A stretch of DNA of 64,000 nt from Candidatus Woesearchaeota archaeon (lineage in GTDB: Archaea; Nanobdellota; Nanobdellia; Woesearchaeales; ARS49): the NCBI GenBank assembly GCA_002687275.1, contig NYZT01000011.1, forward strand, positions 8,040 to 72,039, in the 5' to 3' direction. The position numbers and the translations under genes are program-made. Below, piece by piece: positions 2,080 through 60,196 of this stretch (position 1 is its first letter; each line of letters starts with the position of its first letter). Below the pieces are notes generated by a model that saw nothing but the letters and a program-made list of their open reading frames with translations, was not told where the DNA came from and did no database searches.

Positions 2080-2402
2080 CGTACGAGGAATTCTTGAAGG
2101 TAGACATCCGTGTCGGTAAGATAGTCATGGCTGAGGAGTTTCCAGAAGCAAAAAAGCCAGCCTACAAGCTAAAGATAGATTTTGGAGATTTGGGCATCAA
2201 ACAAAGCAGCGCCCAGCTAACCAAAGATCACGCCCTAGAAGAATTGGAAGGCATGCATGTGCTGTGCGTGGTTAACTTTCCGCCCAAACAGATAGGCCCG
2301 TGGAAGAGCGAAGTGCTAACCTTGGGCGTGCCAGGCAAGAACGGTTCTTGGACGCTGGTCGGACCAACAAAAGACGTCGAGATCGGCGGCAGGCTAGCGT
2401 AA
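2058..2402 (+). CDS. tRNA-binding (EMAP/Myf, CsaA-like) domain protein
   Basis: EEFLKVDIRVGKIV...KLKIDFGDLG...QIGPWKSEVLTLG matches the OB-fold tRNA-binding domain found in CsaA/MetRS C-termini. Overlaps the L10e 3' end by 22 nt. Confidence 0.6.
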   Translation: MQMSDTLTYEEFLKVDIRVGKIVMAEEFPEAKKPAYKLKIDFGDLGIKQSSAQLTKDHALEELEGMHVLCVVNFPPKQIGPWKSEVLTLGVPGKNGSWTLVGPTKDVEIGGRLA

Positions 2403-2432
2403 GGTTAAAAGCGCACCACTTCTTGTAGCGTA

Positions 2433-3059
2433 ATGCTTTATCACAGACCGATAGTAGAGGCTGCAGGCAGGAGTTTTGCTTGGTGGCTCACACACTTTGT
2501 CTACAAGATTAACGCCTCCTATTCTGACCGCATGGTGGATGTTTTCGAGCAGGGCTGTTTCGTGCTTGCAAACCACCAGAAATGGGTCGACCTCGTCTTT
2601 GAGGGCCAGGCAATATACGACGCTTTTGACTGCCATCCTTTGTACATCATGCGAGACACCCTGCCCTTCCAAGACTTGTTTGCGGCAGCAGGAGGCGTGC
2701 CCATGACACGCCAGCGAGATCTTCCTGAGCGACTGGCTAATGATAAGCCTGTCCACCGACCAAGAGATGTTTTTCCTTATCTTGTGGAGCACGTGAAAGA
2801 TAGGGGGGTCGTGGTCATCCATCCGGAGGGCACGAGACATCCAGAGCAAGGCGTAGATACCGAGAAGTGCATGATGGCTCTGACGCACTACTCACGCAAG
2901 GCGTCCATCCGTCCTTGGTATGTACCTCTCAACATCACGTATGACCGCGGGATTCTTGGCAGCAGAGTCAAGCTAGACTTTGGCACTCCCCTAAAGACAG
3001 AGCAAGTGGATACTTTACTAAAACACATGCAAGACCAGATTCCTCTACTTCATACCTGA
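2433..3059 (+). CDS. PlsC-like (lysophospholipid) acyltransferase
   Basis: Acyltransferase motif I NHQKWVD (NHxxxxD) and motif III HPEGTRH are present at the expected spacing. Confidence 0.5.
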   Translation: MLYHRPIVEAAGRSFAWWLTHFVYKINASYSDRMVDVFEQGCFVLANHQKWVDLVFEGQAIYDAFDCHPLYIMRDTLPFQDLFAAAGGVPMTRQRDLPERLANDKPVHRPRDVFPYLVEHVKDRGVVVIHPEGTRHPEQGVDTEKCMMALTHYSRKASIRPWYVPLNITYDRGILGSRVKLDFGTPLKTEQVDTLLKHMQDQIPLLHT

Positions 3060-3940
3060 GTGATGACTTCTACCTGGTCATCGATAAGAATGGTGTGTTC
3101 TGCTTGGGCAACAACGCCCTTTGCTCGCTCTATCAGTGGTGGGTAGCCATGGATGGCTCCTGCCTGCCGTAGCTCTCGCAATCCTAGTTTTGTCTTTCCC
3201 TCGCCAAACTTTTCCATCAGCCATCTTGTCGTGAAAGGAAGGGTGGTGTACTCTTTTTGGATGTGCTGGAGTATCTGTCTTGCGAACACGCTGCGGATGG
3301 GCTTTGGTGCTACCAAAGAAAAAATGTTAGCCTCTTGCTCGCTCTCTGTCACCAATCCGGCTCCGGTGGTGGAGAATGGTTCGATGGCAAACACGCCCTT
3401 ACCCAGCTTGACATCTTCGCCAGTGTCATGGTTTGGTATGGTTGGTGGTACGTGGATTAGGTTTTCACCAAGCCCGTGGCCCGAAAGGTTTCGGATGGGT
3501 TGGAATTTGTACCCGTTGATGGCGGTTTCTATCGTTCTTCCAATCTCTGCAAGCGTGACATCTTCCCCTTTTTCTTTTACTAGCGCGATTGCCTTGTCTC
3601 TTGCCTCCTCGGCTGCTTTGACAAGCTCTGCATGGTTGCCACTCAGATCTATGGTGACTGCGTTATCCCCAATCATGCCGTTTACCGCAACACCCAGGTC
3701 TAGCTTTACTAGTTGATCTTGGAAGGTTGCCTCATCGTTAAGATCTGGGCAGGAGTGCGCTGCGACATGGTTCAGGCTTATCTGGGCAGGAAACGCTGGC
3801 TTTCCCCCTAGAGCATGAATCTTGGCTTCTATCTTGTCGCAAACCTCGACAATCTTTACCCCGCTTTTTATCAGGCCCTTGCCAAACTCTCTTGCCTCGG
3901 CAGCGATCTTCCCTGCCTTGCGCAGGCTTTCCACGTCCAT
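3050..3940 (-). CDS. map: methionine aminopeptidase, type 2 (archaeal)
   Basis: Pita-bread fold with metal-ligand regions (AVTIDLSGNHAEL, GHGLGENLIHVPPTIPN, VFAIEPF, HTILIDDQ). Start moved to internal ATG (MDVESLRKAGKIAAEA) to match typical length of about 295 aa. Confidence 0.8.
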   Translation of the reverse strand: MDVESLRKAGKIAAEAREFGKGLIKSGVKIVEVCDKIEAKIHALGGKPAFPAQISLNHVAAHSCPDLNDEATFQDQLVKLDLGVAVNGMIGDNAVTIDLSGNHAELVKAAEEARDKAIALVKEKGEDVTLAEIGRTIETAINGYKFQPIRNLSGHGLGENLIHVPPTIPNHDTGEDVKLGKGVFAIEPFSTTGAGLVTESEQEANIFSLVAPKPIRSVFARQILQHIQKEYTTLPFTTRWLMEKFGEGKTKLGLRELRQAGAIHGYPPLIERAKGVVAQAEHTILIDDQVEVITQV

Positions 3941-4359
3941 ACGTGCGCGAACTAGAACGGGTATATAAAGCTGCACTCGGAAATGCTTATAAATGGTCTG
4001 TGCCTAGATGATCTCATGGATATCGACAGCCTGCCAGACATCGACGCAAGAGCATACTTTGCGCTACCGCCTTCTTTGCAGGAATCAAGGGGCATGATAC
4101 CGATGAAGCTAGAGGGTCGCGTGCTCCACATTGCGGTGATGGAGGAGTGGTGGAGCAGCAGGACTGACGCCGAAGAGCACGTCAGAAAGTGCGGGTTTAC
4201 CCGTCGTGCCGAGTATCACCGGCTGGAAACGGTAGACTTTCTCAAGCTCCAACACCGGTGGCAGCAGCTCGAGTTAAGGGAACCTGCCGCCCCATCGTAC
4301 GAGGATAGCCAACCCAATAGAGGGGAGGAGCCTCGAGGGTCAGGAGATTCCGGACTCTT

Positions 4360-14137: not shown

Positions 14138-14178
14138 AATAGTCTTGTTCCCATTTTGCTTTTTAAGCGTTGCGGAAT

Positions 14179-14200
14179 AATTTCCGGAAGATTTCCGGTT
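14179..14200. promoter_or_regulatory. TCCGGAAGATTTCCGG palindromic motif (copy 1)
   Basis: aatttccggaagatttccggtt; the inverted repeat TCCGGAA-N2-TTCCGGA is identical to the 16-mer at 38309-38324. Confidence 0.45.
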
Positions 14201-14781: not shown

Positions 14782-14810
14782 TTCCGTATATTCCGGAAGC
14801 CTTCCGGAAG
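14782..14810. promoter_or_regulatory. TTCCGGAAG palindromic motif, tandem (copy 2)
   Basis: ttccgtatattccggaagccttccggaag; two adjacent self-complementary TTCCGGAA units in the upstream region of the VRR-NUC gene. Confidence 0.45.
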
Positions 14811-38306: not shown

Positions 38307-38325
38307 ATCCGGAAGATTTCCGGAT
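38307..38325. promoter_or_regulatory. TCCGGAAGATTTCCGG palindromic motif (copy 3)
   Basis: atccggaagatttccggat; the 16-mer is identical to 14183-14198. Lies between two minus-strand membrane-protein genes. Confidence 0.45.
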
Positions 38326-44606: not shown

Positions 44607-44712
44607 CTCTCGGAAAGCAAAACTTGCTTTAAAAACCCCTTCTTATTTATCACGACGGTGTGACGGTCATGAAGACTAACCTTATTATAGGGTTTTGTGC
44701 GTACAGGGAGGT

Positions 44713-45057
44713 ATGGGCTTACAAAAGAAGTTCGCAACCGGATTGGGTGCGGTGCTGTTGATTGTAGGCATTTGGGGTTTTGTGGCTAACAGCGTGTTGA
44801 TTTTTGACGTCAACACCGCCCACAACGTCCTGCACGTCATCACTGGCGTGCTAGGATTGGCTGCGGGCTTGGGTGCCGGAGCGCAAGCAAAGACGTTCAA
44901 TGTGATTTTTGGCTTGGTGTATGCCTTGGTCACGGTGTTGGGCTTGCTTAACGTTGCTAGCGTTGTGAACCTGCTGAACCTGAATGCTGCAGACAACATT
45001 CTGCACTTGATCATCGCCGTGGCCGCGCTTGGCGTGGGCTTTGGCAGCCATGACTAA
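44713..45057 (+). CDS. small four-helix membrane protein (DUF4383-like)
   Basis: MGLQKKFATGLGAVLLIVGIWGF... with repeated Gly/Ala-rich helices. Confidence 0.35.
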   Translation: MGLQKKFATGLGAVLLIVGIWGFVANSVLIFDVNTAHNVLHVITGVLGLAAGLGAGAQAKTFNVIFGLVYALVTVLGLLNVASVVNLLNLNAADNILHLIIAVAALGVGFGSHD

Positions 45058-48112: not shown

Positions 48113-48913
48113 ATGTTATCTGCATATTGCAAGACTATGGATAGGGAAGTACTCATTGAGGCTGGGCTTACTGATGGCGAGTCGAGGGTGTATCTAGCTT
48201 TGCTTGATCTTGGTTCATCTACCACTGGCCCTATAATCCAAAAGTCTGGGGTCACGAGATCGTTCATCTACGAGATTCTTGACAAGCTGATCAAACTAGG
48301 CCTCATCACGTACGTGGCCAAGGACAGGACAAAGTACTACCAAGCGGCAGACCCTAAACGCTTGCTTGAGGGCATCAAGGAGCAAGAGGACCATCTTAAG
48401 CAAAGCAAGACAAAGGTGGAAAAGCTCATCCCTGAGCTGATGGCAAAACTACACGCCTCCAACCAGAGCGAGGTTAGAGTATACCAAGGATTTAAGGGCA
48501 TGATTGCGGTGCATGAGCAGACCTACAACAAGCTAAAACGTGGAGATGCACATTGCTATTTTGGTGGCGCAGAGCAGCCAAAAGAACACCATCTTTTCTG
48601 GCAGCGAGACCATGTACGTAGGGGAAAGCTAGGAATAAAAAGTAAGATTTTGTTTAATCAGGACACCCCAACCCAGGTTTTGAATAATAGAAATAGTTAC
48701 AAGGGTTGCGATGCCCGGTATATGCCGATAAAATTTGATTCACCGACTTATTTTTTGGTGTACAAGGACACGGTTGTTGTCTACATCCCTACCGGCCAGA
48801 ATCCCGAGGATATGCTGGCGGTGGAGATCGTCAAGCAGGAAGTTGCTGACTCTTTTCAGGAATTTTTCGATGAGTTTTGGAAAAGAAGCGATCCTAGACT
48901 GCAGATCAATTAG
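48113..48913 (+). CDS. TrmB-family transcriptional regulator (paralog 3)
   Basis: LTDGESRVYLALLDLGSSTTGPIIQKSGVTRSFIYEILDKLIKLGLI wHTH; C-terminal domain paralogous to the other two copies. Confidence 0.65.
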   Translation: MLSAYCKTMDREVLIEAGLTDGESRVYLALLDLGSSTTGPIIQKSGVTRSFIYEILDKLIKLGLITYVAKDRTKYYQAADPKRLLEGIKEQEDHLKQSKTKVEKLIPELMAKLHASNQSEVRVYQGFKGMIAVHEQTYNKLKRGDAHCYFGGAEQPKEHHLFWQRDHVRRGKLGIKSKILFNQDTPTQVLNNRNSYKGCDARYMPIKFDSPTYFLVYKDTVVVYIPTGQNPEDMLAVEIVKQEVADSFQEFFDEFWKRSDPRLQIN

Positions 48914-48971: not shown

Positions 48972-50030
48972 TCAGAACAACCAGCCTTTCTTAGGGGAGC
49001 CGGCGAAGTCTTTGAGTGCGTCTTTTTGCTTCTTGGATAGGCGTTTTGGCACGTCTGCTAGGACGCGGACGTGGAGGTCTCCTTGCCCGCCGCGGACGGA
49101 GGGCATGCCCTTGCCGCCGAGCTTGAAGACGGTGTTGTCTTGCGTCCCTGCAGGGATTTTGAGGTCTCCCTTGCCGTCTAATGTCTCTATCTCTACCTTG
49201 CCGCCAAGGCATAGTATGGGGAAGGGTACGCGTTGTTCTGCTAGCAGGTGTGGCCCGCGTCTCTCAAACCGATCATCTGGTTTTACGTGGATGAAGACGA
49301 ATAGGTCCCCATCTCTGCCGCCTTTGAGGCCTGCCTCGCCCTGTCCTGCTAGGCGTAGTCTCATGCCATCTTCTACTCCTGCAGGAATTTCTGCTTCTAT
49401 CTTTCGTTTCTTTTTGGAGCGTCCTTGACCTTCACAATCTTTGCACTCGTTTTGGTAGCTCACGCCTGCTCCTGAGCAGTCTTTGCATGGTCGCTGGGTG
49501 GCAAACACGCCTAGCGGCGTTTGGTGGGCTTGTTGGATGCTTCCTTGGCCTTTGCACGTGTCGCAGGATTGCTCACCTGTGCCGCCCTGGCCTTCGCACT
49601 CTTCGCAGCTTGTGAGGCTGTTGATGGTGACGTCTTTGGCTAGGCCTTCGCTGGCCTCTTTGAGCGTTATGCTTACTTCAGTTTGCAAATCATTGCCATG
49701 CTGGCCGTGTCTTCGGCCAAATCCTTTGAAGCCGAAGCCGCCAAATATGCTGTCTACGAGGTCATCGAAATTGCCGAAATTGAAGCCGCTAAAGTCGTGT
49801 CCTTGAAAGTTGGGTGCGTCTGCGGTGCCGAACTGGTCGTACTGCTGACGTTTTTGGTCATCGCCGAGCACTGCGGCTGCTTCTGAGATCTCTTTGAACT
49901 TTTCTGCAGCGTTTTCTTCCTTAGAAATGTCTGGATGGTATTTTTTTGCGAGTTTTTTGTACGCTTTCTTGATGTCCTCTTTACTTGCGTCTCTGCCTAC
50001 GCCTAGTAGCTCGTAGTAATCCTTACTCAT
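48972..50030 (-). CDS. dnaJ: chaperone DnaJ
   Basis: J domain with HPD (DYYELLGV...KKYHPD), Gly/Phe-rich linker, and four CxxCxGxG zinc-finger repeats. Confidence 0.9.
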
Positions 50031-50059: not shown

Positions 50060-51907
50060 TTACTTCTTCTCTTTGAAGTCAGCATCCACTGTTTTTTCTT
50101 TTTTGTCCTTGGCGTCTGCTTTTGGATCTTTAGCTTTCTTAGCTTCTTGTTCCTTGGCTGCCTTTTGGTAGAGTTCGGTGGCCATTTTTTGGGCTACCTC
50201 TTTGGCTGCCTCTACCGCTTTCTTGAGTGCTGTAAGATCTTTTGGATCTTTGGCTAGCTCTTTCTTGACAACCTCGACCTTGTCTTTGACGGCTTTGATC
50301 TCGTCTTCCTTGACCTTGTCTTTGACCTCACCAAGGGTTTTTTCTGTGCTGTACACCAAGGTTTCTGCTTCGTTTAACAACTCTGCTTCTTCCTTGCGCT
50401 TCTTGTCCTGCTCGGCGAACTTTTCTGCGTCCTGGCGCATCTTCTCGACCTCTGCTTCGTCCAACTTGTTGGGTGCAGTTATCTTGATGCTTTGTTCCTT
50501 GCTCGTGCCGAGGTCTTTTGCGGTGACGTGCAGGATGCCGTTGGCATCTATATCAAAGGTTACCTCGATCTGTGGCACGCCTCTTGGTGCTGCAGGGATG
50601 CCTACAAGATCAAACTGTCCGAGGTTTTTGTTGTCCTCGTACATCGGTCGTTCTCCTTGGCCTACCCGGATGGTTACCGCGGGTTGGTTGTCTGCTGCCG
50701 TGGAGAAGGTTTGCTTTTTCTTGGCAGGTATCGTGGTGTTCTTGTCTATCACTTTGGTGAAGACTCCGCCCAGTGTTTCTATGCCTAGGCTTAAGGGCGT
50801 GACGTCTAACAATAAGACGTCTTTGACGTCTCCTGATAGCACTCCTGCTTGGATGGCTGCTCCTTGGGCGACGCATTCCATAGGGTCTACGCCGCGTTCT
50901 GGTTTTGCGCCTAGCCACTCTTCCACTTTGCGTTGGACGATGGGCATTCTTGTTGGCCCGCCGACCATGATGACTTTGTCGATGTCATTGGTTGACAATT
51001 TTGCGTCTTCTAGCGCTTGCTGGACGCTTTTGTGGCACTTTTCTACGATGTCGTCTACCAAGCGTTCTATGTCTGTTCTTTTTAGCGGGAAGCTGCAGCT
51101 TATCGGTCCTGAGTTTCCTTGGGCGATGAACGGTAGGTTAACTTCGGTTTCTACCACTTGGGAGAGTTCGATCTTTCGCTTTTCTGCCTCTTCGCGTACT
51201 CGTTGCATGGCTGCGCCGTCGTCATTCAGGTCAACGTTGTGGAGTTCTTTGACTTTTTCCACGATGTGGTTGATTATGGCGTCGTCCATGTCGGTGCCGC
51301 CGAGTTGGGTGTCTCCTGAGGTTGACTTTACTTCGAAGACGCCATCTCCGAATTCCATGATGGTGACGTCTAGGGTGCCACCGCCAAGATCGAAGACGAG
51401 TATTTTTTGTTCGCCTTCTTTCTTGTCTAGTCCGTAGGCTAGTGATGCTGCGGTTGGCTCGTTGATTATTCTCTCAACTTTTAATCCTGCAATCTCGCCT
51501 GCGTCTTTTGTCGCCTGTCTTTGGTTGTCGTCAAAGTAGGCGGGCACGGTGATGACTGCTTTTTCTATTTTTTCCCCTAGGAATGCTTCTGCGTCTTGCT
51601 TGATCTTTTGGAGGATTAAGGCGCTTATCTGTTGGGGGGTGTAGTCTTTGCCGTGGATGGTGTACTTGAAGTTTGAGCCCATCTTTCTTTTTGCGGCCAT
51701 GACTGTTCCGTCTGGGTTGCTGACTGCCTGGCGTTTTGCTGGCTCGCCAACGAGTGTTTTGCCGTCTTTGTCAAAGCTTACCACTGAGGGGAAGGCTTTG
51801 CCGTACATGCTGGCTCCTTCTGCTGATGGTACGATTTTTGGTCTGCCGGCTTCTAATATTGCGGCTGCGCTGTTACTGGTTCCTAAGTCAATTCCTAAGA
51901 TTTTCAT
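50060..51907 (-). CDS. dnaK: chaperone DnaK (Hsp70)
   Basis: [16 protein letters not shown]..., DLGGGTLDV, and other Hsp70 signatures; 615 aa. Confidence 0.95.
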
Positions 51908-52347
51908 GGTTTCCTCCTGCTAATGCTTACTTTGGCATAGCGTAGTACTTTGTCTCCGATGGTGTATCCTGTTTGGACCTCTTGGACTATGGTTCCTTCG
52001 GGTTGTTTGCTGTCTACTTCTAGCACGACTTCGTGCTTGAAGGGGTCTGGCTTGCCTTTGCACTGTATGCACTTTACCCCTTGGCTTTCGAGGAACTTGT
52101 CCAGGCGTTTTGCTATGGTTACGACGCCTTGGGCGAGTTCTTCTTGGGAAGCGTTTGTTGCGTTGTGTACTGCGTGATGGAAGTCATCTATGATGTGTAG
52201 GAGGTCATGGATGACTTGGTGTCGGATTTGTTGTTGGGATGTCTCTCTTTCTTTCTCTACGCGTTTTACGTAGTTTTCGAAGTCTGCTTGGACGCGTTTG
52301 AGCTGGTCCAACGTGCCGTTTTTGGTTTTTTTTGTTTTTCCCACCAT
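51904..52347 (-). CDS. grpE: nucleotide exchange factor GrpE
   Basis: [13 protein letters not shown] and C-terminal beta-domain (DPFKHEVV); 4-nt overlap with dnaK start. Confidence 0.8.
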
Positions 52348-52354
52348 CGTATAT

Positions 52355-52373
52355 TGTTGACCTTACGTCAACA
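52355..52373. promoter_or_regulatory. perfect 7-5-7 inverted repeat TGTTGAC-CTTAC-GTCAACA upstream of grpE
   Basis: Located 8-26 nt upstream of the grpE start on the minus strand and inside the divergent intergenic region shared with the wHTH regulator gene at 52449. Confidence 0.45.
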
Positions 52374-52448
52374 TAATGGTATGTAAACTACGTTCACTAT
52401 ATAAACCTTTCGGAAAAGCTTATATAGGGGGGTTGGCTAACTAGTGCT

Positions 52449-52841
52449 ATGATCAAGCGCAAGATCGTTCTTGTCCGTACTGGCTCACCAAGCAACAACA
52501 TCAACGCAGAGCTGCAATGGTTTGGACAGAGCCTCGGTTTATTCGGTCCTAGAGATCGAGATAAGAGTGCGTTCAGGCTGTTTTTAGAGCTCCTAAAGGC
52601 TGCAAAGGCCCAGGAGAGCATGAGCTCTGACGAGTTAGCAAACCGGCTGCTTATCACGAGGGCTACTGTCGTGTATCACCTGAACGAGCTCATGGAGCGA
52701 GGACTTGTCGTGCAGCAAAGGAAGCGATACTTGCTACGAGAGAACGAACTACAGCGCCTTATGGATGACCTGCAGCGAGATGTGGAGGCCACGCTACACC
52801 ACATGCGTGATGTTGCTAAGGAAATAGACGAACGCCTATGA
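52449..52841 (+). CDS. winged-helix transcriptional regulator (candidate heat-shock operon regulator)
   Basis: SSDELANRLLITRATVVYHLNELMERGLVVQQRKRYLL is a wHTH; divergent from grpE-dnaK-dnaJ. Confidence 0.5.
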   Translation: MIKRKIVLVRTGSPSNNINAELQWFGQSLGLFGPRDRDKSAFRLFLELLKAAKAQESMSSDELANRLLITRATVVYHLNELMERGLVVQQRKRYLLRENELQRLMDDLQRDVEATLHHMRDVAKEIDERL

Positions 52842-53775: not shown

Positions 53776-53880
53776 TTACTCAGGATCGGGGATGGCGCCC
53801 TCGTCGTGGCCGTCGTCTTCGAAGACGTCTTCTTCATCTTCGTCGTCCTCTAGAAAGTCCTTTGGGTTGTACTCTGTCAT
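53776..53880 (-). CDS. tiny acidic ORF (34 aa) translationally coupled to L15e (uncertain)
   Basis: Reverse-complement reads MTEYNPKDFLEDDEDEEDVFEDDGHDEGAIPDPE*. Its ATG overlaps the L15e stop as ATGA. Confidence 0.3.
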   Translation of the reverse strand: MTEYNPKDFLEDDEDEEDVFEDDGHDEGAIPDPE

Positions 53881-54431
53881 TGTTTCCTCTTGTTTGCCCT
53901 GCGGCTAGGTCGCGCCTTTACTCTTCCTTTGCCCTTGCCGTGCATGCCTCTGGCCTTCTTGCCAGCGCTGGTTAATCCTCGGTTGACACGGCCTTTGCGA
54001 TGTTCCAGGGAAGGCATTCTTGCCTTTACGTCGGGGCTTTGTGGGTCTGCTAGTATGACTTCGTACCATGCCTTGGTGCCATCCTGGCCTACCCAGTAGG
54101 AATTTAGCACTTCGGTGTTGGGGAATGCCTTGCCTGCTCGCTGCTCGGCAATGACGCGATAGTTCTGTCTTAGGTTTAGTCTGCCTGTTTTGCGCTTGCT
54201 TCTTCTGCCGCCAGCAAAGCTCTTCTTGTGCGGTCCTCGAATGACGGTTTGTCTGACAACGAATAATCCTTTGATGGGTTTGTACCCCAGACTTCTTGCA
54301 CGATCAAGACGCGTCGGTCTTTCTAATCGTAACGTGGCAGGGTCTCGACGCCAGGCCATGATCCTTGTTTTCCACAGCTCCATCTTCTTGGGCTGTTTCC
54401 ACAACGACCTCATTCTTGTGTATAAAGACAT
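53877..54431 (-). CDS. rpl15e: 50S ribosomal protein L15e
   Basis: MSLYTRMRSLWKQPKK...RPTRLDRARSLGYKPIKGLFVVRQ...AWYEVILADP matches the L15e family; length 184 aa. Confidence 0.85.
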   Translation of the reverse strand: MSLYTRMRSLWKQPKKMELWKTRIMAWRRDPATLRLERPTRLDRARSLGYKPIKGLFVVRQTVIRGPHKKSFAGGRRSKRKTGRLNLRQNYRVIAEQRAGKAFPNTEVLNSYWVGQDGTKAWYEVILADPQSPDVKARMPSLEHRKGRVNRGLTSAGKKARGMHGKGKGRVKARPSRRANKRKQ

Positions 54432-59293: not shown

Positions 59294-60196
59294 TTGATGC
59301 GTGTTTTAGTTACTGGCGGGACAGGCTTCATCGGAAGCAACCTCGTCCAAGAACTCATAAAACAAGGTCACGACGTTCTCATTACAGGGCATGATGCCGA
59401 ACAAAAAATACCTGACTTTTCTGGCACCGTGCTCCAACCCTCTCTCGTAGGCATAGATTTTGAGAGACTAGGGAAGATCGATGTTTGTTTCCACCAAGCA
59501 GCCATCAACGACACCACGCTGATGGACAAGGAGGAAATGTTCCGTGCCAACGTCCACAGCAGCATAGAATTATTCAAAAAGCTCATTGCAAACGGTTGCA
59601 CGCGTATTGTTTACGCCTCCTCAACAGCAGCATATGGTGATGCGCCCGTGCCATTCAAAGAAGATGGCCCTATGCGCCCGATGAACCCGTACGGTGAAAG
59701 TAAACAACGACTAGAAGAGGAAGCAATGATACTAGCAGCACAAAACCCAGGTGTTGTGTTTGTTGGCTTGCGTTATTGCAACGTGTACGGGCCAGGCGAG
59801 GACCACAAAGGTCCGAGAGCAAGCATGATCTACCAGCTAGCACAGCAGATGAAAGAAAAAAATCCAAAACTGTTCAAGATGGGCGAGCAAAAAAGGGAGT
59901 GGGTGTACGTCAAGGACGTGGTAAAAGCTAATCTGCTAGCAGCAAAGGCAACGCGAAATTGTGTTGTTAACGTGGCCACAGGTACTGCGACAACTTTCAA
60001 CAAGATCGTGGAGATACTAAACAACGCCATGGCCACCTCACGCACGATAGAGTATATAGACAACCCTCATGAGGCGTATCAAACGCATACAGAATGCGAC
60101 ATGGGCCATGCCAAAGAAATGATCGGTTTCGAGCCAGATTTCGACGTGGAAGCAGGCATCAAGGACTACTTCGAAAGCGGACGCCTGCTAAGCTGA
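59294..60196 (+). CDS. NAD-dependent nucleoside-diphosphate-sugar epimerase/dehydratase (SDR extended family)
   Basis: VLVTGGTGFIGSNLVQEL Rossmann motif and YxxxK-type catalytic region (YGESKQRLEEE). Confidence 0.75.
   Translation: MMRVLVTGGTGFIGSNLVQELIKQGHDVLITGHDAEQKIPDFSGTVLQPSLVGIDFERLGKIDVCFHQAAINDTTLMDKEEMFRANVHSSIELFKKLIANGCTRIVYASSTAAYGDAPVPFKEDGPMRPMNPYGESKQRLEEEAMILAAQNPGVVFVGLRYCNVYGPGEDHKGPRASMIYQLAQQMKEKNPKLFKMGEQKREWVYVKDVVKANLLAAKATRNCVVNVATGTATTFNKIVEILNNAMATSRTIEYIDNPHEAYQTHTECDMGHAKEMIGFEPDFDVEAGIKDYFESGRLLS

Follow-up and report, generated by a model that had tools for sequence, protein, structure and literature searches.

A conserved 17-bp palindrome at a woesearchaeal grpE-dnaK-dnaJ promoter, the probable operator of an archaeal heat-shock repressor

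Known heat-shock regulators and the woesearchaeal locus

Heat-shock regulation is poorly understood in archaea. The sole factors named are Phr and HSR1, both from hyperthermophiles without Hsp70 (PMC9133787, PMC10653856). The Phr operator, built of the elements TTTA, TGGTAA and AAAA, lies over the transcription start site, and Phr represses by blocking RNA polymerase recruitment; the HSR1 motif is CTAAC-N5-GTTAG (PMC9133787). Archaeal Hsp70 operons are of bacterial origin, and surveys of the DnaK-DnaJ-GrpE system in archaea mention no regulator (PMC3564930, PMC12874294). We searched the literature on heat-shock regulation in DPANN archaea and Woesearchaeota and found nothing relevant.

Among the bacterial systems, HspR with its HAIR element and HrcA with CIRCE each pair a dedicated repressor, encoded at the locus, with an inverted-repeat operator at the promoter of the dnaK operon. 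Chaperone feedback sets the activity of these repressors, through DnaK in the case of HspR and GroEL in the case of HrcA. RheA of Streptomyces albus is the repressor of hsp18 as well as a thermosensor; its operator is TGTCATC-N5-GATGACA and its gene is divergent from the small-hsp target. Proteins of the ST1889, Lrs14, Sta1 and Sso10a types are crenarchaeal and are known for low-specificity DNA binding or for biofilm or viral regulation.

Here we describe a locus in a 64-kb stretch of DNA (the window) from a member of the Woesearchaeota, which are to our knowledge uncultured. A grpE-dnaK-dnaJ operon lies next to a divergent gene for a small winged-helix-turn-helix (wHTH) protein, hereafter the regulator (Table 1). 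The first-pass annotation of the window had singled out a perfect 7-N5-7 inverted repeat between the two, TGTTGAC-CTTAC-GTCAACA, as a candidate novel operator for the adjacent regulator. The parts of that proposal that can be tested in silico, namely conservation, co-occurrence with the regulator gene and the absence of a known motif, hold and are consistent with such a role. The gene for ribosomal protein L15e marks the genome as archaeal. The repeat sits exactly where it had been placed, at 52355-52373; the minus-strand ATG of grpE at 52347 is 7 nt from the repeat, and the ATG of the regulator gene at 52449, said to be about 75 nt away, is 76 nt from it. The locus offers a compact hypothesis on archaeal heat-shock control, with a small protein, a 17-bp site and a defined promoter geometry, and it bears on how a bacterial chaperone operon is wired into the archaeal transcription machinery.

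Table 1. Features of the locus, in window coordinates
Feature	Position	Strand	Details
grpE	51904..52347	-	Pfam GrpE, E = 6.7e-34; first gene of the operon
dnaK (Hsp70)	50060..51907	-	Pfam HSP70, E = 2.4e-218; 4-nt overlap with the grpE stop codon
dnaJ (Hsp40)	48972..50030	-	Pfam DnaJ, DnaJ_CXXCXGXG, DnaJ_C
wHTH regulator gene, 130 aa	52449..52841	+	Pfam HTH_20, MarR_2
TrmB-family regulator gene	48113-48913	+	PF01978, E = 6.5e-14; convergent to dnaJ, just beyond the operon end
Ribosomal protein L15e gene	53877-54431		Pfam
Putative operator O1	52356..52372	none	17-bp palindrome GTTGACCTTACGTCAAC; family consensus GTTGACTTWAAGTCAAC
Leftward (grpE) TATA box	52398..52405	-	TTTATATA on the minus strand
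Leftward BRE-like purine-rich element	52406..52411	-	GAAAGG; inverted repeat I1 arm CTATATAAACCTTTC
Rightward BRE-like element and TATA box, regulator promoter	52413..52426	+	GAAAAG and CTTATATA
Predicted grpE-dnaK-dnaJ transcription start	52373..52376, ~52375	-	predicted from TATA spacing

The nearest archaeal counterparts resemble the locus in several respects. The regulator is a wHTH protein, as are Phr (Pyrococcus furiosus and Thermococcus) and HSR1 (Archaeoglobus fulgidus). The putative operator is placed as the Phr operator is, past the TATA box and over the start, here a predicted one, and like the HSR1 site it is a short inverted repeat whose arms are 5 nt apart. The regulons of both factors include hsp20, a gene that the motif precedes in 5 relatives, the window itself having no hsp20. 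By contrast, Phr is about 200 aa in length and the window protein 130 aa; autoregulation is a feature of Phr and HSR1, and at the predicted start of the gene for the present regulator no operator was seen; the target here is a bacterial-type Hsp70 operon, whereas the hosts of Phr and HSR1 lack Hsp70; and those hosts are hyperthermophilic Euryarchaeota, in contrast to the mesophilic DPANN host of this locus. Phr, whose structure is solved (2P4W), appears neither among the 60 best PDB profile matches of the regulator (E up to 0.76) nor among the top 50 Foldseek matches of its model. The HSR1 motif occurs nowhere in the window at up to one mismatch, the conserved site being GTTGACTTWAAGTCAAC. A Phr-like TGGTAA between operator and TATA box was considered and dropped, as it is found in 6 of 61 loci.

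Turning to the bacterial elements, the claim of the first-pass annotation that the palindrome is neither CIRCE nor HAIR was borne out by a motif search. CIRCE (TTAGCACTC-N9-GAGTGCTAA) has no match with up to five mismatches in 52250-52460, its sole match in the window being at 2980; HAIR (CTTGAGT-N7-ACTCAAG) has none with up to three mismatches in the intergenic region, and there is no CtsR box in that region. The protein gave no match to HrcA in Pfam or to MerR-type models in Pfam and NCBIfam, and by these comparisons it has no detectable relation to Phr, HSR1, HrcA or HspR. The proposed circuit nonetheless has the HspR-HAIR and HrcA-CIRCE layout of a dedicated repressor encoded at the locus and an operator in inverted-repeat form in the promoter region of the dnaK operon, with the difference from HspR that the regulator gene is divergent from the operon and outside it. 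Chaperone feedback, known for HspR and HrcA, is a matter of speculation for this protein. Because the promoter is of the archaeal BRE/TATA kind, repression would have to act on TBP, TFB or RNA polymerase and not on a sigma-70 holoenzyme. The 7-N5-7 architecture and divergent regulator gene also recall RheA, which we take as a lead only; RheA is bacterial, belongs to another protein family and recognizes another half-site.

The best matches of the regulator in both sequence and structure are proteins of the ST1889, Lrs14, Sta1 and Sso10a types (best PDB profile match 2d1h, E = 3.7e-07; Foldseek TM about 0.46-0.59), which likewise have a wHTH followed by a C-terminal dimerization helix. The NCBIfam cut-offs for these families are not reached, however, with 30.2 bits against 80 for Sta1 and 27.0 against 90 for Lrs14. 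The system would work like HspR/HrcA and Phr/HSR1 but belongs to none of them: the circuit would be of a known type, and the regulator family and its operator appear to be new.

The palindrome and its conservation among relatives

Taken without regard to conservation, the palindrome is within chance expectation. The window holds 8 perfect 7-N5-7 repeats where shuffled sequences hold 3.7 +/- 1.7, and 66 inverted repeats with spacers of 0-12 where 52 are expected from shuffles. With counts this near to chance, the case for a real site rests on conservation. We therefore turned to 84 related loci, gathered via the neighboring wHTH protein and mostly 47-58% identical in that protein; together with the window itself they made up a set of 85 sequences for the motif scan. 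GTTGAC-N5-GTCAAC occurs 35 times without and 25 times with one mismatch in the intervals between grpE and the regulator gene, which add up to 32 kb, whereas the flanking DNA of the same loci (337 kb) contains 0 copies at up to one mismatch. With the wHTH gene as the search handle, the motif was present in about 60 of the ~70 loci that have enough upstream DNA, and in a comparison of 61 unique loci anchored on the motif, the intergenic DNA around it is otherwise diverged.

Conservation also redefines the element. Across the 61 unique sites, positions 1-5, 8, 10 and 13-17 are essentially invariant. The spacer positions T8 and A10 are invariant (122/122) though they were not selected on, and positions 7 and 11 are T and A in 100 of 122 cases, which gives GTTGACTTWAAGTCAAC, a palindrome of 17 bp, as the consensus. 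The outermost T/A pair of the 7-5-7 repeat, by contrast, is Watson-Crick in just 17 of 66 unique sites, and in the 98%-identical relative (L001/L007) the outer T is replaced by G while the core is kept. The repeat unit proposed in the first pass thus stands in its core and loses its outer pair, and the conserved unit is O1 of Table 1. Loss of the palindrome from close relatives with the same gene arrangement had been named as an outcome that would count against an operator; it is retained in L001/L007, and also in distant relatives with regulators about 50% identical and the same arrangement.

The association of the motif with its gene neighborhood, seen in many small DPANN archaea, is exclusive: it accompanies the regulator gene and heat-shock operons (grpE-dnaK, hsp20), and all three elements co-occur in about 60 loci. 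By tblastn, grpE, and usually also dnaK, lies divergent upstream of the regulator gene in essentially every locus of adequate length. Behind the motif, grpE comes first in 43 unique loci, hsp20 in 5 and a 165-aa ORF followed by grpE (ORF165) in 5; on the opposite side the first gene is the regulator gene in 46 and a DUF3467 gene followed by the regulator gene in 16. The arrangement persists despite an inserted hsp20, ORF165 or DUF3467 gene. In seven loci the regulator gene does not adjoin grpE or hsp20 (L003, L040, L057, L065, L070, L073 and L079, of which L065 and L070 are identical in sequence over the compared region), and none of the seven has the motif, the best PWM score anywhere in them being at most 3.8 bits. 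Since the motif is missing where the regulator lacks an adjacent heat-shock operon, it belongs to the promoter of the heat-shock operon and not to that of the regulator.

Within the window the site is unique. A PWM built from the other loci, with the window sequence left out, scored the window site at 24.5 bits, the runner-up in the 64 kb reaching 6.0, and neither a 3-mismatch search nor the PWM scan found another operator copy above 6 bits in the window. The first-pass annotation had suggested looking for the same palindrome at other genes, such as htpX-like ones; there is no second site in the window. A match at 59608 with 2 mismatches was rejected as an operator copy with a PWM score of -4.5 bits. 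A further palindrome at 44794-44816, GTGTTGA-N9-TCAACAC, has the TGTTGA/TCAACA arms in common with the operator; its spacing differs, it sits within a plus-strand gene for a DUF4383 membrane protein (44695-45057), and we judged the likeness coincidental. The PWM can be used to predict stress regulons, and the locus is relevant to hundreds of uncultured DPANN genomes.

Two genes recur beside the motif in relatives of the window locus, and both belong to uncharacterized families that this arrangement points to as stress-linked. The DUF3467 (PF11950) protein, of 113-135 aa, is encoded directly upstream of the regulator gene in 16 of 62 unique loci (L032:2645-2995(+), L009, L020, L046 and others), where the two genes seem to share a transcript, and in L002 its gene (2107-2466, minus strand) lies elsewhere within the dnaK neighborhood. 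No function is assigned to it; it may act with the regulator as a partner or serve as its sensor. The conserved 165-aa ORF (MDYEKGIK...AKTIADIFEIVKEMV...), which has no Pfam match, comes first behind the operator and before grpE (L037:2366-2863(-), plus L035, L038, L056, L060, L061 and L074) and is a candidate new member of the heat-shock regulon. The window itself holds neither a DUF3467 homologue nor an hsp20 gene.

Promoter geometry

The motif has a fixed place in the promoter. TAT[AT]TAAA, which is TTTATATA in the window when read leftward, is conserved at a constant distance from O1 in all unique loci: operator and TATA box are 25 nt apart in the window, and 61 of 62 unique loci fall within 23-27 nt. 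The distance from the operator to the start codon, unlike the TATA spacing, is variable (3-93 nt). Between the two TATA boxes lies the consensus cTTTCGGcAAAAg, which represents back-to-back BRE-like elements (61 unique loci), and the gap between both boxes is 14 nt in 23 loci. The conserved order is thus the leftward start codon, a variable gap, the operator, TAT[AT]TAAA, cTTTCGGcAAAAg, a rightward TTTAWATA, at least about 22 nt, and the rightward gene.

Archaeal TATA boxes are usually centered ~26-27 bp upstream of the start, with a usual spacing from box to start of about 22-24 bp. By this spacing the grpE transcript is predicted to start near 52375, and the operator would span about +3 to +19, or in rounder terms +1 to +20, and overlie the predicted start. 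On the other side, the regulator ATG is 22 nt past its TATA box, so a leaderless mRNA is predicted. No operator was seen over the predicted start of the regulator gene itself, and the regulator is therefore probably not directly autorepressed. In the window, just 8 nt (AATATACG on the grpE strand, 52348-52355) separate the operator from the grpE ATG; no Shine-Dalgarno-like sequence was seen between the two, and the predicted leader is about 28 nt. Several relatives have a Shine-Dalgarno-like GGAGGTG downstream of the motif. A scan for bacterial promoters and terminators found nothing, the scan being made for bacterial signals and the host being archaeal.

In many relatives a degenerate second copy (O2) lies exactly 20 bp from the main site on the TATA side. 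The mean PWM score at the +20 offset is -17, as compared to about -50 at all other offsets, and it exceeds 5 bits in 8 of 61 loci. This periodicity suggests that two dimers may bind cooperatively along one face of the DNA. O2 was seen in L077 (~807-843), L063, L011, L058, L068 and L052, an example being GTTGATTTAAAGTAAAC-ttt-GTTGATTTAAAGTTAAC. In the window O2 is not evident, and a GTAAAC half-site stands alone at 52383-52388, out of register. More broadly, most loci have a tCAACTa half-site directly against the TATA box; 56 of 61 carry an A at position -5 followed by a C at -4.

The regulator protein and the proposed repression

The regulator belongs to the ArsR/MarR-like winged-helix superfamily: it narrowly passes the Pfam gathering threshold of 27 bits, scoring 30.8 for HTH_20 and 30.9 for MarR_2, and its model has the wHTH fold. 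The models that it matches are generic wHTH models alone (HTH_20, MarR_2, HTH_IclR and others). A word-index search with the regulator returned 131 matches, which below the two closest are mostly 47-60% identical, and an exhaustive profile search 289 clusters (50% identity) at E<=1e-10, and the family occupies at least 405 loci in metagenomes. Its alignment has three conserved parts, an N-terminal block, the HTH and the C-terminal helix. The N-terminal block comprises N19, L22, W24, G30, L31, R35, D36, D38 and S40, and the segment marked by the residues from N19 to D38 is what proteins of the ST1889, Lrs14, Sta1 and Sso10a types do not have. The recognition helix, TRATVVYHLN in the window and (T/S)R(G/A)T(V/I)(V/I)HH(L/I)N in the family, is nearly invariant and in this parallels the invariant half-site. 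In an AlphaFold model (pLDDT 87.7), helices at residues 18-28, 40-53, 60-67 and 71-83 are followed by a beta wing (87-96) and a long C-terminal helix (101-129), and the Foldseek neighbors are wHTH regulators throughout. As modeled, the wHTH with its long C-terminal helix resembles the dimeric proteins of the Sso10a, Lrs14 and ST1889 types.

Residues 1-17 (52449-52500), modeled with low confidence, contain a conserved basic-hydrophobic-basic stretch with the consensus RRITIVNVRRP and the sequence KRKIVLVRTG in the window. This stretch is probably disordered and, by way of speculation, resembles the type of segment that Hsp70 binds. We also looked for helix residues that track operator variants. 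R-A-T versus R-G-T loosely follows a C at position 7; this correlation is confounded by phylogeny and for that reason was not used.

More distant members of the family differ in their sites. P0185 (L085:3410-4405), which has a cluster mate labeled as coming from a MAG of the Methanobacteriota, is encoded divergently from hsp20, and the intergenic region holds a different perfect 17-bp palindrome, GTCTAAA-TTC-TTTAGAC, at ~3939-3955, 5-7 nt from a TATA box. A changed palindrome is what would be expected if operator and regulator co-evolve, and it suggests that there may be regulator subfamilies with altered operator specificity. Another distant member, P0243 (L086/L087), has no chaperone neighbor and no clear palindrome.

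The 17-bp site is very probably the binding site of an archaeal heat-shock repressor that has so far not been described. More specifically, we put at roughly 0.7 the probability that GTTGAC-N5-GTCAAC is a DNA operator bound by a homodimer of the divergent wHTH protein and serves to repress grpE-dnaK-dnaJ. In the proposed mechanism, a homodimer of the 130-aa winged-helix protein would sit on the palindrome with one recognition helix in each GTTGA half-site, the half-site centers being 12 bp apart. The bound protein would leave the BRE and TATA box open to TBP and TFB and would block either the recruitment of RNA polymerase or its loading at the start site. Heat or proteotoxic stress would then take the repressor off the DNA and allow the operon to be transcribed. 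The signal might be chaperone titration via the conserved N-terminus (RRITIVNVRRP-like), which is speculation. The regulator would be transcribed from its own back-to-back BRE/TATA promoter, probably without direct autorepression. We infer repression because the operator falls on the downstream side of the TATA box, and stress as the signal because of the gene content, GrpE-DnaK-DnaJ and Hsp20. Co-localization points to the neighboring protein as the likely binder, short of proof.

An alternative is that the element acts as RNA, with a 7-bp stem and 5-nt loop at the 5' end of the grpE mRNA leader that would serve as a stabilizer, a thermometer or the site of an RNA-binding protein. The palindrome is probably transcribed, given the predicted start at ~52375, and for the 32-nt leader a folding energy of -8.9 kcal/mol was computed (z = -3.1 relative to shuffles), so that it may have some additional role as RNA. 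The pattern of substitution nevertheless makes a structural RNA improbable. In 66 unique sites, pairs 1-5 and 8 never change their pair type and hence do not covary, although the proteins have diverged by about 50%; at pairs 6 and 7, 11-21 of the 66 sites have true mismatches, whichever strand is read; and one-sided changes are equally frequent both ways (9 TG versus 11 CA, with C.A as often as G.U). Neither the covariation nor the sequestration of a Shine-Dalgarno sequence or start codon that would mark an RNA thermometer or structured 5' leader was found, the start codon lying outside the hairpin and the Shine-Dalgarno sequence of relatives downstream of it. Searches of Rfam returned no family, either for the region at a permissive threshold or for the whole window at the gathering threshold. 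Finally, the second copy at exactly +20 bp falls upstream of the predicted start, and phasing by two helical turns (20 bp) is a property of DNA, which counts against a structural RNA. The lack of covariation, the tolerance of inner mismatches and the copy at 20 bp collectively fit a protein-bound DNA operator and not an RNA hairpin.

Three further readings accept the palindrome as DNA. One is that it is a true operator with another binder, either the TrmB-family protein or a factor encoded elsewhere, and that the wHTH gene merely shares the promoter region. Archaeal genomes encode many wHTH proteins, and in the window dnaJ has the TrmB-family gene as its close neighbor beyond the operon; set against this, the wHTH gene as search handle retrieved the motif at the frequency given above, the arrangement survives the insertion of hsp20, ORF165 and DUF3467 genes, the recognition helix and half-site are invariant together, and a distant subfamily has a changed palindrome. 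We consider a different binder unlikely. That the same protein instead activates grpE or, from about -75, its own gene is less probable again. With respect to grpE, the site is located past the TATA box and over the predicted start, whereas the archaeal activators known to us bind upstream of BRE/TATA; with respect to the regulator gene, it lies ~45 bp upstream of the TATA box and is missing when that gene stands alone. Speaking for activation, some small archaeal wHTH proteins are activators, among them Sta1, to which the regulator is weakly similar with an NCBIfam score far under the cut-off (PMC1635249). Lastly, a chance palindrome without function, which the commonness of perfect 7-N5-7 repeats in the window (8 observed, 3.7 expected) might suggest, has a negligible probability: it is refuted by the 60 interval sites against 0 in 337 kb of flanks, together with the conservation and constant position of the motif in relatives.

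A wider interpretation can also be drawn, to which we give even odds. The regulator would represent a third, hitherto undescribed family of archaeal heat-shock factors, widespread in Woesearchaeota and Nanoarchaeota (DPANN) and the first known to control GrpE-DnaK-DnaJ together with hsp20. It would be a repressor of archaeal type recruited to a horizontally acquired operon, possibly with DnaK feedback via its N-terminus, and its regulon would include the DUF3467 protein and the 165-aa ORF.

Elsewhere in the window we observed two nearly alike GC-rich palindromes, TCCGGAAG-CC-TTCCGGA at 14792-14808 and TCCGGAAG-AT-TTCCGGA at 38308-38324, with a weaker version at 14171-14188. Each of the two lies in a short gap between long minus-strand ORFs; they might represent an operator common to both places, or else hairpins resembling terminators.
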